Positions 455 to 21,773 of a DNA stretch of 64,000 bases are shown here, one piece after another. Below the pieces are notes generated by a model, which was not told where the DNA came from, did no database searches, and saw only the letters and a list, made by a program, of their open reading frames with translations. This stretch comes from Brevundimonas sp. (GTDB taxonomy: Bacteria; Pseudomonadota; Alphaproteobacteria; Caulobacterales; Caulobacteraceae), in NCBI RefSeq assembly GCF_029946145.1, contig NZ_JAQSDY010000012.1, positions 178,806-242,805 on the forward strand, read 5' to 3'. The position numbers and the translations under genes were made by a program. The first letter of the stretch is position 1. The number at the start of each line of letters is the position of its first letter.

Positions 455-795
455 CCGACGCCTTGCCCACGCCGAACGCGGCCACCCTGGCCGAGCTTGA
501 GGCCAACGCCGCCCCGGCGGCCCGGCTGATGCGGCTGTTCGCCAACGAGCAGCGGTTGATGCTGATGTGCCGGCTCAGCGAGGGCGACTGCGCCGTCGGC
601 GACCTGGCGACCTTCGTCGGCCTGTCGCAATCGGCCTGTTCGCAGCACCTCGCCCGTCTGCGCGACGCCGGCGTCATCGCTCCGCGGCGCGAGGCGCAGA
701 CCATCTACTACGGCATCGCCGACCCGGCCGCCGCCCGGGTCATCGCCCTGCTTTGCGACATCTACCGCGACAAACCGAAGGAACGGACTTCATGA
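451..795 (+). CDS. ArsR/SmtB-family repressor, BigR/SqrR-like
   Basis: ANEQRLMLMCRL...SQHLARLR...RREAQTIYY winged HTH; Cys in LMC and LLCDIY; ATGA overlap with the RND gene. Confidence 0.9.
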   Translation: MTDALPTPNAATLAELEANAAPAARLMRLFANEQRLMLMCRLSEGDCAVGDLATFVGLSQSACSQHLARLRDAGVIAPRREAQTIYYGIADPAAARVIALLCDIYRDKPKERTS

Positions 796-1175
796 CCTAT
801 TTCCACGCCCGCACCATCGAGGGCGACTTCGATGCGATCGTCGAGCGGACCCGGGCGGCGCTTCAGAAGCACGGCTTCGGCGTCCTCACCGAGATCGACG
901 TTCAGGCCACGCTCAAGACCAAGATCGGGCAGGATTTCCGCCCCTACCGCATTCTCGGCGCCTGCAATCCGGTCATGGCCCATGAGGCTCTGAAGCTGGA
1001 GCCGCACGTCGGTGTCATGCTGCCCTGCAATGTCGTGGTCCAGCAGGCCGAAGGGGGCGTTGAGGTCTTCGCCGTCGATCCGTCCGCATCGATGAGCGCC
1101 ATCGACAATCCTGACCTCCTGGGCCACGCGCGAACCGTGGGTGAGCATCTGCGAGCGGCCGTCGACGAAATCTGA
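792..1175 (+). CDS. DUF302 domain protein
   Basis: GFGVLTEIDV...YRILGACNP...GVMLPCNVVV pattern; true start ATG 792 overlaps the ArsR stop (ATGA). Confidence 0.88.
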   Translation: MTYFHARTIEGDFDAIVERTRAALQKHGFGVLTEIDVQATLKTKIGQDFRPYRILGACNPVMAHEALKLEPHVGVMLPCNVVVQQAEGGVEVFAVDPSASMSAIDNPDLLGHARTVGEHLRAAVDEI

Positions 1176-14255: not shown

Positions 14256-15415
14256 GACGTCAGCACCAGATCGTCGCGATGGATCGCAACGCCGGGACCC
14301 TTCCAGCCGAGCAGGGCCTCGAAATCGCGGCTGTTGCGGCCCTGGATCCGTCGACAATCACCGGCGGCGTAGGCGGCCAGGCCCATGCCGAGCGGTCCCG
14401 ACGGTCCGACTACCCGAACGCAGTCGCCGGAGTCGAAGTCACCCCGCACCTCGGAAACGCCCGAGGCCAGCAGGCTTTTGCCCCGGGCCAGCGCGACGGC
14501 GGCGCCGTCGTCAACAACCAGGACGCCGGCAGGCTCGAGGCTCCCGGCGATCCACTGCTTGTACGCGGTCATCGGTGTGCCGGGGGCGGCGATCAGGGTG
14601 GCCCTGGCGCCTCGTTCGAGGGCCGACAGTGGCGCACGGGCGGCGCCGGACAGGATCAGGGTCGAACAGCCGGCCGAACGGGCGATGCGGGCCGCCATCA
14701 GCTTTGTGACCATGCCGCCGGATCCGACGCCTGTCTGACTATTCGGGCCCTCTGCCGCCGCGAGGGCTTCGGGGGTCAGGTCAGCCAGAAACGGGATGTG
14801 GATCGCGCCCGGGTCGCGGCGTGGATCCGCAGTGTAGAGGCCGTCGACGTCCGACAGGAGCACCAGCAGGTCGGCTCTGGCGAGTTGCGCGGTGCGGGCG
14901 GCGAGCCTGTCGTTGTCGCCGTAGCGGATTTCCTCGGTGGCCACGGTGTCGTTTTCGTTGACCACGGGCACGACGGCGAGGGTCAGAAGCGCTTCGAGAG
15001 TGGCGCGGGCGTTCAGCCAGCGCCGCCGACGCTCGGTGTCTTCCCGGGTCAAGAGCACCTGGCCGGCGACGAGGTCGTGAGCCGTCAGCGCGGCGGACCA
15101 GGCCTGCATCAATATCGATTGCCCGACGGCGGCGGCGGCCTGCTTCTCGTCCAGTCGGGCGTCGGCGGAGAGGCCGAGACGTCGGCGCCCCAGGGCCACG
15201 GCGCCGGATGAGACGACGATGATCGCCTTGCCCGCCGTCCGGAGCCGGGCGACGTCTCCGGCCATGGCGTCAAGCCAGGCTTTATCAACATCGCCGCTGG
15301 CGGAATCGACGAGCAGCGACGACCCGATCTTCACCACCACCCGGCGCGCGGCGTCCAGGACCTGGCCCGCGTTCTGAACGCCGACTTCCGGCATGGATGT
15401 GGTGCTGGGGAGCAT
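14252..15415 (-). CDS. proB: Glutamate 5-kinase (with C-terminal PUA domain); start could be the second Met
   Basis: [46 protein letters not shown]. Confidence 0.96.
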
Positions 15416-15582
15416 GTCGCCAGCATGGCGGTCCCACCGGGCGATGCCAAGGCGTGCTGCGGGCTGTCAGGATGATTCTGCGATTGCCGCCGGCTGATGC
15501 TTTCACGCCGCCAGTAGCTGTTGCATCGTTCCGGGGGAGGCGATCAAATGTCGACGGCCGCGCACGGCCGGATGGAACGCTG

Positions 15583-16977
15583 ATGGCCGCCTCGCCCTTC
15601 CCCGCCTACGTCAGTACGCGCGGGTCCTCGCCGGATGTGGATTTCGTCGGCGCGCTACTGGCGGGAGTGGCCCCGGATGGTGGTCTGTATGTCCCGACGT
15701 TCTGGCCGCAGCTGACGGAGACGGCGGCCGCCGCCACGGGGACCGCTGATCTCGCCGCCGCGATCCTGGCTCCATTTGTCGGCGACTCCTTGCCGGCCGG
15801 GACGTTGGACCGCGCGGCGGCGCGGCTGACGGACCAGTTCAGCCACCCGGATACGACGCCGCTGGTGGAGCTGGAGTCCGGCCTCTTCGTGCTTGAGCTG
15901 TTCCATGGCCCCACGGCGGCCTTCAAGGACTATGCCATGCAGATGGTCGCCGTGCTGGCGGAGGCCGCACTCGGGGCGAGGGGCGAACGACTGTTGTTGG
16001 TGACCGCAACCAGCGGCGATACGGGCGCGGCGGCGGTGCGGGCTTTCGGCGGCGTGGACCGGATCGACCTCGTGGTGCTGCACCCCCTGGGGCGGGTGTC
16101 GCCGGTGCAGCGGCTGCAGATGACGACCTCCGGCGCCGCCAATGTGCTGAACCTGGCGGTGCGGGGCGACTTTGACGACTGCCAGCGGCTGGTGAAGGGA
16201 CTTCTGGCCCATCGCGCCCTGACGGCCGGGCGGCGTGTGAGCTCGGTGAACTCGATCAACTGGGCGCGCCTGGCCGGGCAGATCCCGTACTACGTCAGCG
16301 CGGCGCAGGCGTTGGGGCGCTCGGCGGGCAAGGCGACCTATGTCGTCCCGACGGGCAATTTCGGAGACGCCTTCGCGGGCTGGGCGGCGCGGCGGATGGG
16401 CCTGCCAATGGGCGGACTGGTGGCGGCCACGAACCGGAACGACGCCCTGGTGCGGGCGCTGGAGACCGGCGTCTACGAACGCATCCAGGCCGAGCCGACG
16501 GCGAGCGTCAGCATGGATGTGCAGGCGCCGTCCAATTTCGAGCGGCTGGTGTTCGAGGCCTCGGGTCGGGACAGCGCCCTCACGCGCGGTCTATTCGAGG
16601 ATTTCTCCCGCCACGGACGGGTGACCCTGCCCTCCGAGCTCCTGGCGGCGCTGCGGCGCGAGGTCTCGGCGGTTTCGGTCAGCGAGGCGGAAACCCGTCA
16701 TGAGATGGCGCGGACCCATGCGGAAACGGGACGCGTGATCTGTCCACACACGGCTGTGGCTCTCCACGCCGCGCGGCGGCTGGACCGGTCAGCGGGTCCC
16801 GTGGTCGCGCTGTCGACGGCCCACCCCGCCAAATTCCCGGAGGCGGTCGAGGCGGCCCTGGGTTTCGCCCCGGAACGCCCGCCTCAGCTGGAGGGGCTGG
16901 AAGGCCGGACCGAAGTGTTCGACACGATCGACCCGTCCCTCGACGCTGTTCTGGCCGCGATCGGCCGCGTCGACTGA
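15583..16977 (+). CDS. thrC: Threonine synthase
   Basis: YVSTRG, GVAPDGGLYVP, LELFHGPTAAFKD (PLP Lys), ATSGDTG, SVNSINWARL, VPTGNFGD, STAHPAKF. Confidence 0.96.
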   Translation: MAASPFPAYVSTRGSSPDVDFVGALLAGVAPDGGLYVPTFWPQLTETAAAATGTADLAAAILAPFVGDSLPAGTLDRAAARLTDQFSHPDTTPLVELESGLFVLELFHGPTAAFKDYAMQMVAVLAEAALGARGERLLLVTATSGDTGAAAVRAFGGVDRIDLVVLHPLGRVSPVQRLQMTTSGAANVLNLAVRGDFDDCQRLVKGLLAHRALTAGRRVSSVNSINWARLAGQIPYYVSAAQALGRSAGKATYVVPTGNFGDAFAGWAARRMGLPMGGLVAATNRNDALVRALETGVYERIQAEPTASVSMDVQAPSNFERLVFEASGRDSALTRGLFEDFSRHGRVTLPSELLAALRREVSAVSVSEAETRHEMARTHAETGRVICPHTAVALHAARRLDRSAGPVVALSTAHPAKFPEAVEAALGFAPERPPQLEGLEGRTEVFDTIDPSLDAVLAAIGRVD

Positions 16978-16979
16978 GG

Positions 16980-17927
16980 TCAGGCCGCCAGGCTCAACTC
17001 CGTCCACCAGTCCAGCCGTCGCAGGAACGGGGCGGGGTCCTTGGGCGTCACCAGGGCCCGGGTGTCGTGGAAAAGCCGGTCGTGCAGACGGGTGAGGATG
17101 AAGCGGACGGCGGCGACGGCGCCGAGGCCGGGCAGGGCCGCTTGCTCGGCGGCGGTGAGTGGGCGGATGGACTCATATCCAGTCTGGAACGCCTGGATGG
17201 CCGCCGGCAGCGGGGCGCCGTTCTCGTCGAAACCCCAGGCGGAGAGGGCGATGGCGAGATCGTAGGCCAGAGAGTCGACACAGGCGAAATAGAAGTCGAT
17301 CAGTCCGCTGACCGAGCCGCCTTCGAACAGGATGTTGTCGGGGAAATAGTCGGCGTGGATGGGCCCGCGCGGCAGGCCGGGGGCGGGATCGGGCGCGCCT
17401 TCGCCGACCCAGGGCGCGACCCGCTCGAGCAGACTTCGGTCAGAGCCCGTCGCGCGGCCGCTGCAGCGATCGAACAGCGCCCGCTGGCCCGCCAGTCCGA
17501 CGGGGTTGTCGCGGTGCGCGGGATAATCGGCGGCGGCGAGATGAAGGCGCGCGAGCATCACCCCGGCGGCTGTCTGGTCCGCCAGGGTCGGCCTGGCCGT
17601 GGACGCGCCAGGCAACCAGTTGAGGATGGCGGCCGGCCGGTCGTTCAGGCGGCCGATCGCGCGCCCGTCTTCATCGGTCAGGGCCCGGGCGCAAGGCAGG
17701 CCGCGCTCCGCCGCGTGCCGGGTCAGGCCGAGGCAGAAGGGCAGGGCGGCCGCGTCGGTGCGGCCCTCGAACAGGGTCAGGACGAATGACCCCTGATCGA
17801 CGTCGAGCCGGTAGTTGGTGTTCTCCACCCCTTCGGCGATGGGCGTCAGCGCGCGCAGCGGCCCAAGACCGAAGCGGCTAATGAAGGGCTCGGCGTCGGC
17901 TTCGTCCACGGGGGTGAAGACGGCCAT
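16980..17927 (-). CDS. thrB: Homoserine kinase, type II (APH-like)
   Basis: MAVFT, IAEGVENTNY, FVLTLFE, IHADYFPDN, IDFYFAC, KDP. Confidence 0.93.
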   Translation of the reverse strand: MAVFTPVDEADAEPFISRFGLGPLRALTPIAEGVENTNYRLDVDQGSFVLTLFEGRTDAAALPFCLGLTRHAAERGLPCARALTDEDGRAIGRLNDRPAAILNWLPGASTARPTLADQTAAGVMLARLHLAAADYPAHRDNPVGLAGQRALFDRCSGRATGSDRSLLERVAPWVGEGAPDPAPGLPRGPIHADYFPDNILFEGGSVSGLIDFYFACVDSLAYDLAIALSAWGFDENGAPLPAAIQAFQTGYESIRPLTAAEQAALPGLGAVAAVRFILTRLHDRLFHDTRALVTPKDPAPFLRRLDWWTELSLAA

Positions 17928-19671: not shown

Positions 19672-19721
19672 GAACGGGGCTTTCGGTGCAGGGCGGGGAG
19701 GGAAAGGCGTGGGGCGGAATG

Positions 19722-19752
19722 AAAAACCCCGCCCGGGGGTCCGGGCGGGGTT
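19722..19752 (-). terminator. Intrinsic terminator of the thr attenuator
   Basis: Minus strand AACCCCGCCCGG-ACCC-CCGGGCGGGGTT then TTT: 12-bp GC-rich stem with U-tract, between the leader and the AK-HSDH start. Confidence 0.9.
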
Positions 19753-19783
19753 GGGTTATTGCGATCCTGAGCTTCGGTGCGCG

Positions 19784-19837
19784 CTAACCTGTCCCCGCCG
19801 TCGGCGTGGTGATGGTGGTGATGGTCATGGTGGTCAT
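19784..19837 (-). CDS. thrL: Thr/Ile(/Met)-rich leader peptide MTTMTITTITTPTAGTG
   Basis: 17 codons with 9 Thr, 2 Ile and 2 Met, ending just 5' of the terminator. Its 3' part (GGCGGGG...GGTTA) is complementary to the terminator 5' arm region. Confidence 0.88.
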   Translation of the reverse strand: MTTMTITTITTPTAGTG

Positions 19838-19983
19838 GCCGAGCCCGCCGAGGCGCACGATCTCGCCGCCGCGCGAAGCGGGCGAGAGGGCGGCGAAGGC
19901 TGCGGCGGAACGGATCACGGGACCAGGCTCACATTGAAGTGCAGGCGGCAGGCTGCGGGGCGCCACGGGCTTTCGTCAAGTCG

Positions 19984-20082: not shown

Positions 20083-21183
20083 TCAGGCCCAGTGCATCTG
20101 GACGCGATGCGCGGCGGCCCAGTGGATGGCGCGCAGACCGTCGATCACGGCATTGGCGGCGTCGCGCGTGCCCATGGTCCCCCCGAGGTCCTCGGTTGTC
20201 GCGCCGGCCGAGAGCACGGCGGCGACGGCGGCCTCGATCGAGGCCGCCTCGTCCTCCAGTCCGAGGCTGTGGCGCAGCATCAGGGCGGCGGACAGGATGG
20301 TCCCGACTGGATTGGCCTTGTCCTGGCCGGCGATGTCCGGCGCCGAGCCGTGGATCGGCTCGAACAGGCCGGGACCGTCGGCGCCCAGCGAGGCCGAGGG
20401 CAGCAGACCGATCGAGCCGCCCAGGACCGAGATCTCGTCCGACAGGATGTCGCCGAACATGTTCTCGGTCAGGATGACGTCATATTCGCGCGGCTTGCGG
20501 ATCAGATGCATGGCCATGGAGTCGACCAGGGCGTGCTCCAGTTCGATGCGGGGGAATTCCTCGGCGTGGACGCGGGTGACGACCTCGCGCCACAGGCGGC
20601 TGGTCTCCATCACATTGGCCTTGTCCACCGAGGTCACCTTGCCGCGCCGCAGCTGGGCGGTCCTGAAGGCGGCGCGGGCGATGCGTTCGATCTCGGGCGT
20701 GGTGTAGACACACAGGTCGGTGGCGCGGTCGGCGGTGCGGGTCTTCTCGCCGAAATAGATGCCGCCCGTCAGCTCGCGGAACACGATCAGATCGACGCCC
20801 TCGACGATCTCCTGCTTCAGCGGCGAGCGGTGGGCCAGCACCGGCGACACCTGCAGCGGCCGCAGATTGGCGAACAGACCCATGGCCTTGCGCAGGCCCA
20901 GCAGGCCTTCCTCGGGCCGGCGCGCGCCGCCGTCCCATTTGGGACCGCCGACCGCGCCCAGCAGCACGGCGTCGGCGGCGAGGCAGGCGCTGACCGTTTC
21001 CGGCGGCAGGGGATCGCCGGTCGCGTCGATCGCCGCGCCGCCGATCAGATGCTCGTGGAAGCGGAATTTATGCTCGAAGAAGTCGCCGATGACCGCCAGC
21101 ACGGCGCGGGCGGCGTGGACGACCTCGGGGCCGACCCCGTCGCCGGGCAGGACGACGATGTCGAAGGTGCGGGGAGCGGGCAT
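20083..21183 (-). CDS. leuB: 3-isopropylmalate dehydrogenase
   Basis: IVVLPGDGVGPEV, LGAVGGPKWD, FANLRP, FRELTGGIYFGE, VDKANVM, NMFGDILSD, EPIHGSAPDIAG. Start ATG 21183. Confidence 0.97.
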   Translation of the reverse strand: MPAPRTFDIVVLPGDGVGPEVVHAARAVLAVIGDFFEHKFRFHEHLIGGAAIDATGDPLPPETVSACLAADAVLLGAVGGPKWDGGARRPEEGLLGLRKAMGLFANLRPLQVSPVLAHRSPLKQEIVEGVDLIVFRELTGGIYFGEKTRTADRATDLCVYTTPEIERIARAAFRTAQLRRGKVTSVDKANVMETSRLWREVVTRVHAEEFPRIELEHALVDSMAMHLIRKPREYDVILTENMFGDILSDEISVLGGSIGLLPSASLGADGPGLFEPIHGSAPDIAGQDKANPVGTILSAALMLRHSLGLEDEAASIEAAVAAVLSAGATTEDLGGTMGTRDAANAVIDGLRAIHWAAAHRVQMHWA

Positions 21184-21773
21184 CAGGCGGTTTCCATTTC
21201 GTGAGCGGCCTCCCAGGCCGCGATGTCGGGCAGGCGGGCTTGCAGCCAGCCCAGGGTGTCGACGCCGTCCAGCAGGCAGCGGCGGGCGAACAGCTCGACC
21301 GTGAAGGGCGTGGGGGCGGCGTTGCCGCGGCGGATTTCTCCGGCCTCCAGATCGATGGTCACCGGCTGGTCGGGGAAGGCGGCGAGGTCGTCCCACGTCG
21401 CCTGATTGACCTCGATGGGCAGCAGGCCGGTCTTGAGGGCGTTGGAGGTGAAGATGTCGGCGATCGAGGTCGAGATCACCGCCTGGAAGCCGTAGTCGAC
21501 CAGCGCCCACGGGGCGTGTTCGCGCGACGAGCCGCAGGCGAAATTCGGCCCAGCCAGCAGGATGCGCCGCTCGGCCGGATCGATGCGATTCAAGACCGCC
21601 TCGGGCTTGGGCGAGCCGTCGGTCTCGTAGCGCCAGTCGTAAAAGGCCGCCTTGCCCAGTCCCTCGCGCGAGGTGGTGGTCAGGAAGCGCGCGGGGATGA
21701 TCTGGTCGGTGTCGATATTGGCCTGGCTGAGAACCACGGCCTTTGACGTCAGGGCTTGAAAGGCTTCAGGCAT
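21183..21773 (-). CDS. leuD: 3-isopropylmalate dehydratase small subunit
   Basis: [28 protein letters not shown]. Confidence 0.97.

Follow-up and report, generated by a model that had tools for sequence, protein, structure and literature searches.

In a 64-kb window, by which we mean the whole stretch of DNA that was analysed, the minus strand carries a threonine-rich leader reading frame, an intrinsic terminator and a helix that competes with this terminator, all ahead of a two-gene threonine operon. Together, these elements very probably form a ribosome-mediated (leader-peptide) transcription attenuator of the operon, which encodes a fused aspartokinase-homoserine dehydrogenase (AK-HSD) without ACT domains and a homoserine kinase. 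By the homologues of its fused enzyme, the host is a Brevundimonas; the best genomic match is 95% identical. Attenuation through a leader peptide is a textbook case for the thr operons of gammaproteobacteria, and the features of the class are present here: a run of Thr codons, an intrinsic terminator before the structural genes and a mutually exclusive antiterminator with its 5' strand at the end of the open reading frame (ORF). A threonine leader-peptide attenuator in an alphaproteobacterium is what an earlier, sequence-only reading of this DNA had proposed, and comparative evidence strongly supports the proposal: leader, terminator and competing helix are conserved with the AK-HSD gene within the genus and in distant thrA'BC operons.

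The leader, its terminator and the competing helix

The threonine-rich frame (19837-19784, minus strand) translates as MTTMTITTITTPTAGTG and ends at a TAG codon (19786-19784). It begins with the regulatory codon run M-T-T-M-T-I-T-T-I-T-T (19837-19805, minus strand), in which 7 Thr, 2 Ile and 2 Met codons are packed into 11. When all six frames were scanned for at least seven Thr codons within 12, this run was the single such stretch in the window. The pattern of a Thr run plus hairpin is thereby confirmed as a real observation beyond chance.

The sequence-only reading had taken this frame as a complete 17-codon ORF starting at ATG 19837. Start conservation and codon-position composition point instead to a longer leader, most likely translated from GTG 19918 and comprising 44 codons plus the TAG (19918-19784, minus strand; product MIRSAAAFAALSPASRGGEIVRLGGLGMTTMTITTITTPTAGTG), of which the 17 codons would be the C-terminal part. 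Every Brevundimonas-type locus has an in-frame GTG, TTG or ATG in conserved context 38-52 codons ahead of the stop. Gaps 3' of GTG 19918 in the leader alignment are all multiples of three, and substitutions there are periodic by codon position (0.53/0.46/0.37) and flat 5' of this codon. The GC content of the three codon positions is 0.64/0.66/0.87 in the leader from GTG 19918 and 0.63/0.59/0.63 ahead of it; the third-position value (GC3) matches that of the neighbouring genes (0.87-0.91), and 67 of 72 unique leaders have their highest GC at this position. The ATG equivalent to 19837 is missing from several close relatives (for example, L002, L006, L007 and L008), and homologous leaders in distant relatives are 40-51 aa long with ATG starts. 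As start codon, periodicity and GC3 all speak against it, the 17-aa ORF was rejected as the full leader; with GTG 19918 as the most likely start, the ATG at 19837 would be a Met codon inside the regulatory run. A 24-aa version from the intermediate GTG 19858 was likewise rejected, being neither conserved nor found in public collections. The exact 44-aa sequence is present in NCBI nr, where gene finders have called it, and its homologues are labelled 'hypothetical protein'. Coding-type GC3, frame-preserving indels, a conserved start, the ATG starts of distant homologues (most with Shine-Dalgarno-like sequences) and the calls of gene finders are indirect signs that the leader is translated.

A terminator scan placed a hairpin with 12 pairs, 10 of them G-C, at 19752-19725 on the minus strand (AACCCCGCCCGG-ACCC-CCGGGCGGGGTT, then TTTCATT); read as CCCCGCCCGG-ACCC-CCGGGCGGGG, it begins 36 bases past the leader stop and is followed by UUUUU. 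It folds with -27.1 kcal/mol (z = -5.4), a value equalled by none of 200 shuffles. When the terminator 3' arm is removed, the stretch that runs from the final codons of the leader into the loop of the terminator adopts a three-tier stem of -31.3 kcal/mol (z = -3.6; equalled by 1 of 200 shuffles), so that folding of the region returned both structures as the sequence-only reading had proposed. The outer helix of this antiterminator joins GGCGGGG (19799-19793) to CCCCGCC (19750-19744), and the middle helix joins GGUUA (19789-19785), which holds the first two bases of the stop codon, to UAACC (19758-19754). The innermost tier is a predicted hairpin, GCG..CC....GG..CGC, between the stop codon and region 3 (19782-19761, minus strand); it is predicted at all loci, 85% of its cells are paired in a model-based alignment, and it could possibly serve as a scaffold or pause element.

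Numbered as attenuator regions on the minus strand, region 2 (19804-19785; CCG..GGCGGGG..GGUUA) is the antiterminator 5' strand and overlaps the last six sense codons and the UA of TAG. Region 3 (19758-19741; UAACC..CCCCGCCCGG) is the antiterminator 3' strand, of which 19750-19741 doubles as the terminator 5' arm. Region 4 (19736-19722) consists of the terminator 3' arm CCGGGCGGGG (19736-19727) and the U-tract (19726-19722). For region 1, an uncertain candidate is formed by the Pro codon and the C-rich codons that close the Thr run (19816-19803), able to pair with region 2. All elements of an antiterminator exclusive with a 12-bp terminator and U-tract thus exist where they had been proposed, but the conflict is limited to the outer helix: the GGUUA/UAACC part is compatible with the terminator, and the full-length fold contains the terminator together with the middle and inner stems.

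Conservation in Brevundimonas and in distant alphaproteobacteria

We took 80 genomic loci with a fused enzyme 62-95% identical to that of the window. Three were cut by contig ends, leaving 77 assessable loci (L031 by eye), all from Brevundimonas or Caulobacteraceae. In all 77, a Thr-rich frame closes with (P/MP)x(R)AGTG or RAGRV, and a terminator starts 32-42 nt past the stop; a search for homologous Caulobacterales leaders, which the sequence-only reading had suggested, found the same arrangement at every one of these loci. Even at L036, one of the loci cut by a contig end, part of the terminator is retained. Every locus forms the three-tier stem when the terminator 3' arm is left out, and the stop codon lies in or beside the antiterminator 5' strand at every locus. 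Among 75 aligned leaders, the GGCGGG core within the frame shows no change.

Codon usage was compared with neighbouring genes over the 14 codons at which a stalled ribosome would leave the G-rich arm free. In this regulatory zone, across 74 unique leaders, Thr makes up 40% of codons (3.8% in neighbouring genes), Ile 10.6% (3.5%) and Met 7.2% (1.4%). Length and order of the Thr run vary among loci, and Thr richness is kept despite this, which therefore indicates selection on codon identity and not on an RNA motif. A variable codon run beside an invariant pairing segment is what would be predicted of an attenuator. Gly codons (GGC/GGT) account for a further 19% of the zone, chiefly in clades 2 and 3 (for example, IIGGTTGTTTMP); pairing with ACC codons or with the region 2 CCGG, not sensing, may be why these are retained.

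The leader tracks the downstream AK-HSD gene and not its 5' neighbour, which is leuB in the window, a divergent gene with an S-adenosylmethionine (SAM) riboswitch in clades 2 and 3, and ilvC or an aldehyde dehydrogenase gene in other lineages. This synteny largely refutes the notion that the hairpin is the terminator of the upstream ilvE-leuCDB cluster and the Thr-rich frame a fortuitous product of GC-rich intergenic DNA. Such an origin would fit a leuB gene that ends at 20083, ~330 nt upstream on the same strand, the commonness of chance long open frames at ~67% GC and a generic scan without a promoter between leuB and the leader. However, leader and terminator stay with the AK-HSD gene when the 5' neighbour differs or diverges, the Thr run is unique in the window and remains Thr-rich in more than 80 loci despite sequence drift, and a TTGACG box is conserved between leuB and the leader. 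We regard this origin as exceedingly improbable.

Covariation supports the terminator itself. Of the cells in the terminator helix, 94% are paired, and both sides have changed in 8 of 10 pairs; its covariation score of 0.163 compares with 0.052 for shuffles, none of 500 of which reached it, and with at most 0.045 for slid controls. Exchanging terminator arms between lineages cost 4-9 kcal/mol.

The same design was found at seven thrA'-thrB-thrC operons, of Maricaulaceae, Sphingomonadales and their relatives, whose enzymes are ~40% identical to that of the window: the metagenomic contig L085 (41.7%), Marinicauda algicola, Glycocaulis abyssi, an Oceanicaulis sp., Sphingosinicella terrae, an Allosphingosinicella sp. 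and a second metagenomic contig, from an assembly of the Joint Genome Institute (JGI). In all seven, the leader has 40-51 aa with a Thr/Ile run and a G-rich tail, and the terminator 5' arm pairs with this tail. The L085 leader has 51 codons with a GGAG Shine-Dalgarno sequence and an ATG start, ends in …STTATTSTTTIMGGRCGAG and is followed by a terminator with the same competing pairing. In the other six, a called gene of 40-49 aa, annotated 'hypothetical protein', lies 100-120 nt 5' of thrA'-thrB(GHMP)-thrC and carries a run of Thr/Ile(/Met) codons towards its C-terminus (for example, …HMTIITTIITTTGGTGGGADMV and …RLTTTIITITTTRKRGGSG). The terminator of these six, CCCGCUCCCC…GGCGAGCGGG-U6, has a 5' arm that, without the 3' arm, pairs with the G-rich tail at -21 to -34 kcal/mol. 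The distant leaders start with ATG, most with a purine-rich Shine-Dalgarno-like sequence 5' of it.

A covariance model (R1) was seeded with Brevundimonas leaders only, including the window sequence. It matched all seven distant leaders over their full length at the expected positions, with 23.7-35.9 bits and rough E-values of ~1e-6 to 8e-4. In the window, R1 scored 122.6 bits at 19849-19720 (minus strand), its sole significant match in 64 kb; as the window is in the seed, this score follows by construction, and the distant loci are the independent test. Upstream of the leaderless fused genes L081-L084, L086, L088 and L116, R1 found no match. A leader universal to the AK-HSD fusion was rejected, there being none at L081-L084, L086, L088, L094 and L116. 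At the metagenomic loci L081-L084, the fused gene directly follows a gene for a Cys/Met-metabolism enzyme dependent on pyridoxal phosphate (PLP; C-terminus …GITDGLIRLSVGLE…), an arrangement that suggests a methionine-linked operon.

Proposed mechanism and amino-acid specificity

In the mechanism that these elements suggest, transcription would start probably near 19943 and the 44-codon leader would be read from GTG 19918. With ample charged Thr-tRNA, and probably Ile-tRNA too, the ribosome would pass the Thr/Ile/Met run and reach the TAG at 19786-19784. There it would mask region 2 (19804-19785), so that region 3 (19750-19741) could pair with region 4 (19736-19727); the 12-bp terminator and U-tract would form and RNA polymerase would stop ahead of the structural genes. 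When Thr-tRNA is scarce, the ribosome would stall at Thr/Ile codons in the early to middle part of the run (~19834-19814), leaving region 2 uncovered and freed from its weak partner in the run. Region 2 would then pair with region 3 (GGCGGGG/CCCCGCC plus GGUUA/UAACC), no terminator would form and polymerase would read through into the operon. Judged by its footprint, a ribosome stalled at either of the final two codons of the run, or at a Thr codon within the arm (19801-19799 and 19792-19790), would cover region 2, and no relief of termination is expected from such stalls.

Three unrelated metatranscriptomes (X1-X3, from biofilm, wastewater and an aquifer) each hold one short leader contig, of 255, 186 and 188 nt, from a close relative. 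These contigs lie within window positions 19712-19966; their alignment stops at 19718 and the contigs end 0-14 nt further, at 4-18 nt beyond the U-tract. Transcription of the leader region is thereby shown, and the contig ends fit termination at the U-tract, although this is suggestive only. The short contigs may reflect abundant terminated leader RNA, or one widespread or contaminant Brevundimonas strain. Runs holding a Brevundimonas diminuta-type locus gave multi-kilobase contigs that do not resolve transcript ends. High-depth 31-mers at 19807-19838 were discounted, as they resemble low-complexity matches to ACC repeats.

Several results weigh against attenuation by a translating ribosome as set out above. 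The contigs are assemblies from related strains, not reads, and one of the runs also has structural-gene contigs of similar depth, from another strain. No clear Shine-Dalgarno sequence lies 5' of GTG 19918, and the promoter is placed by conservation only, because a generic sigma-70 consensus scan calls none between leuB and the leader. The local 1:2 hairpin of the window (-11.0 kcal/mol, z = -1.7) is not significant. As the antiterminator (-31 kcal/mol) far exceeds the 1:2 hairpin in stability, an untranslated leader may default to read-through, unlike in the trp paradigm. The antiterminator outer helix, with 96% of cells paired, is essentially invariant and so has almost no independent covariation to support it. 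In an alignment-free chimera test of the middle helix, own partners (-4.55 kcal/mol) did no better than partners from other clades (-4.50 kcal/mol), with 786 of 2,000 permutations as good. In swaps between lineages, only Brevundimonas region 2 preferred its own region 3 (-20.2 versus -13.6 kcal/mol).

The terminator covaries; the antiterminator is only conserved in its pairing potential. MAFFT shifted the 3' partner of the middle helix by ~2 columns in some clades, and RNAalifold on the full leader alignment gave a weak consensus only. The 1:2 hairpin is predicted in most leaders, and compensatory changes were seen at one pair of its region; across 76 leaders, folding without region 3 paired the GGCGGG core mainly with positions 18-36 nt 5' of the stop.

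An antiterminator that is conserved without covarying, as in some protein-bound leaders, would also be compatible with an attenuator that senses through a protein or small molecule on the leader RNA in place of a stalled ribosome, the Thr frame being incidental or encoding just a small protein. The weak within-clade conservation of the N-terminal part of the 44-aa peptide would agree with this, as would the extra trans functions of the trp attenuator RNA and peptide in Sinorhizobium (PMC7968998, PMC10117765). Yet the run conserves amino-acid identity (Thr/Ile) and not nucleotide order or length, the frame bears a coding GC3 signature and Rfam places no riboswitch at the leader. Moreover, the stop codon always lies in or beside the antiterminator 5' strand, a placement that is sensible only if a terminating ribosome matters. 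Sensing by an RNA-bound ligand is in our view very unlikely.

Granted a stalling ribosome, the question is which amino acids are sensed. The internal Met codon had led the sequence-only reading to suggest that all three homoserine-derived products are monitored, and stalls at Thr, Ile and Met codons, perhaps also at Gly codons, might indeed all relieve termination, such that the attenuator would integrate several end products. The enzyme supplies homoserine for Thr, Ile and Met, and the zone is enriched 3-fold in Ile and ~5-fold in Met over neighbouring genes; one or more Met codons occur there in 57 of 74 leaders, and the Gly share is the 19% given above. In E. coli, thrL responds to both Thr and Ile, and a Met-dependent attenuation of thrA in Pasteurellales was reportedly predicted by Vitreschak et al. 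2004. However, most leaders have a single zone Met, just 14 of 74 having two or more, and a single codon rarely controls strongly. Some close relatives have no Met in the run at all (for example, L008, GTTTTTTTTTTP). The best-conserved Met, in the M-P motif of clades 2 and 3, is 8 codons from the stop and so near the antiterminator arm that a ribosome stalled there would cover region 2. Some Met codons may moreover be alternative starts, and Gly codons may serve RNA pairing with ACC codons. The Met enrichment stands, but relief of termination by all of these codons is possible rather than probable.

The operon, known systems and neighbouring DNA

The first gene of the operon (19671-17929, minus strand) starts 112 nt past the leader stop and encodes the 580-aa AK-HSD, with the Pfam domains AA_kinase (22-246), NAD_binding_3 (277-389) and Homoserine_dh (399-567). 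No ACT domain was matched in its product even at E <= 5, and the product stays under every NCBIfam equivalog cut-off (ThrA, 151.8 versus 726 bits). The second gene (17927-16980, minus strand) encodes a homoserine kinase of the alternative APH-fold type (NCBIfam NF003558, 309.9 bits with a cut-off of 271; TIGR00938 thrB_alt, 291 with a cut-off of 255.9); its ATG at 17927 lies one base from the stop codon of the first gene (17931-17929). A threonine synthase gene (15397-16977, plus strand) is convergent to the kinase gene and outside the operon.

ACT-less AK-HSD fusions are widespread, with end-to-end matches of 35-53% identity in more than 150 clusters at 50% identity (for example, L085, P0302 and P0389), and range over Caulobacterales, Maricaulaceae, Sphingomonadales and other Pseudomonadota. 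Operon make-up differs by lineage: Brevundimonas has the APH-fold kinase with thrC outside, and Maricaulaceae and Sphingomonadales (L161-L166) have a GHMP-type ThrB with thrC inside, the kinase type having been exchanged between lineages while the leader was kept. Because the enzyme has no ACT domains, attenuation may be the main feedback control of AK-HSD. It is also conceivable, though unlikely, that ACT-less enzymes have no allosteric feedback by Thr whatsoever, that flow through the branch is controlled by an attenuator integrating Thr/Ile/Met charging, and that the long leader peptide or the terminated RNA acts in trans like peTrpL and rnTrpL of Sinorhizobium.

The arrangement resembles E. 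coli thrL in its run of Thr/Ile codons followed by about five more codons, a stop and a GC-rich terminator, and in a G-rich ORF end that competes for the terminator 5' arm. Likewise, the E. coli thr operon has a bifunctional AK-HSD followed by a homoserine kinase, and the order thrL-A-B-C is common to it and the distant alphaproteobacterial relatives. In contrast to the 21-aa E. coli leader, those described here have 40-51 aa, and the 1:2 hairpin is weak or uncertain. E. coli ThrA has ACT regulatory domains and the fusion of the window has none; in Brevundimonas, the kinase is of the APH fold and thrC lies outside the operon.

Within the same class of bacteria, trpL/rnTrpL of Sinorhizobium meliloti and the ilvB/ilvIH leaders use the same mechanism for other amino acids and other operons. 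The ilvB leader has been cited as described earlier in alpha-proteobacteria (PMC1273637), and the S. meliloti trpE attenuator is well characterised and translated (PMC10117765, PMC7968998), trpL being a leaderless ORF of 14 aa. SEP5 of S. meliloti, a small ORF located in the 5' untranslated region of an aspartate dehydrogenase gene, has six clustered Thr codons towards its 3' end; its translation was detected and a Thr/Lys leader peptide was proposed (PMC10117765). SEP5 is thus alike in being a small Thr-rich ORF 5' of an aspartate-pathway gene in an alphaproteobacterium, a likeness drawn from its description only, but it differs in the aspartate dehydrogenase gene downstream, its mixed Thr/Lys codons and its restriction to Sinorhizobium, and no terminator or antiterminator analysis has been reported for it. 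A 2013 survey of Rfam motifs found the catalogued amino-acid attenuator motifs to be essentially gammaproteobacterial (PMC3766115). In the searchable literature, which did not cover Vitreschak et al. 2004, no thr attenuator was found described for Caulobacterales, Maricaulales or Sphingomonadales.

Database models also pass over the leader. The Rfam family RF00506 (Thr_leader) gave 18.8 bits (E = 1.5; gathering score 55) in the window and 16.4 bits at L085, and had no match at E <= 1 at the leader of eight diverse relatives. Nothing in an Rfam scan of the window reached any gathering score, and other weak matches (RcsR1, Scr5676 and Actino-pnp) were dismissed as chance-level. Six leader peptides, including the 44-aa one of the window, matched no Pfam or NCBIfam family at E <= 10. 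The leader had been called unannotated, which is true of its function, as no Rfam, Pfam or NCBIfam model matches, but not of the 44-aa ORF, which is already in NCBI nr. Judged by sequence, the alphaproteobacterial thrA' leaders are a new sequence family of a thoroughly known mechanism: a well-conserved family of probable Thr/Ile attenuators that spans at least three alphaproteobacterial groups, Brevundimonas (Caulobacterales), Maricaulaceae and Sphingomonadales, at more than 80 loci, which Rfam 15, Pfam and NCBIfam have missed and whose leader ORFs stand in RefSeq as 'hypothetical protein'. Describing the family would improve annotation, provide an Rfam seed and give a handle on the regulation of ACT-less AK-HSD, and in metabolic engineering the attenuator would be an element to delete for deregulated threonine synthesis. 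The understanding of attenuation itself is unchanged, and specialists will not be surprised.

Conservation upstream of the leader marks a candidate promoter on the minus strand. A putative -35 box, TTGACG (19979-19974), is conserved in 15 of 16 clade-1 upstream regions, and 18 nt past it lies a candidate -10-like box, CAGCCT (19955-19950), conserved as GCAGCCT/TCAGCCT in the clade-1 alignment and a poor match to TATAAT. An AT-rich palindrome, CCGGCAATA-A-TATTGCCGG (20003-19985, minus strand), lies 5 nt 5' of the candidate TTGACG box, and its core, GCAAT-N5-TTGC, is semi-conserved in clade-1 relatives. This palindrome could be an UP-like element or a transcription-factor site through which the operon is controlled at a further level.

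Immediately 5' of the Thr leader, clades 2 and 3 have a divergent SAM riboswitch (RF00162; 78-85 bits, gathering score 44.4) (L030:2353-2479, L034:2404-2521, L047:2435-2550, L056:2335-2446 and L070:2385-2500, all minus strand). A SAM-controlled gene and a Thr-attenuated operon therefore share one intergenic region in these clades. Maricaulaceae-type loci have a second long ORF rich in Leu, Val and Ile (for example, MRDTKTLAIDPSERLAAVALATLVLLVVLITSITGAAAPV), followed by a terminator, 5' of the ketol-acid reductoisomerase (KARI) gene ilvC and divergent from the Thr leader (L161:799-921, L162:817-957, L163 ~747-869 and L085 ~711-831, minus strand). A branched-chain attenuator is likely here, and R1 matches these ilvC-linked leaders weakly. 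In the window, no further leader was found among runs of Leu, Ile, Val, Phe or His codons, nor as a mixed leader for Leu, Ile and Val.

The same-strand genes 5' of the leader are leuB, a probable leuD (by position and size only, no family-library scan having been made), leuC and an ilvE-like gene that abuts leuC. The mechanically called leuB ORF (20083-21510, minus strand; 475 aa) is ~115 codons longer than its LeuB domain match, which starts at residue 118, and overlaps the adjoining 196-aa ORF (21183-21773); the true leuB start is probably near 21160. About 15 nt past the leuB stop, the motif GAAACCGTGTCGT (20070-20058, minus strand) is kept in most clade-1 relatives, unlike the surrounding intergenic DNA.

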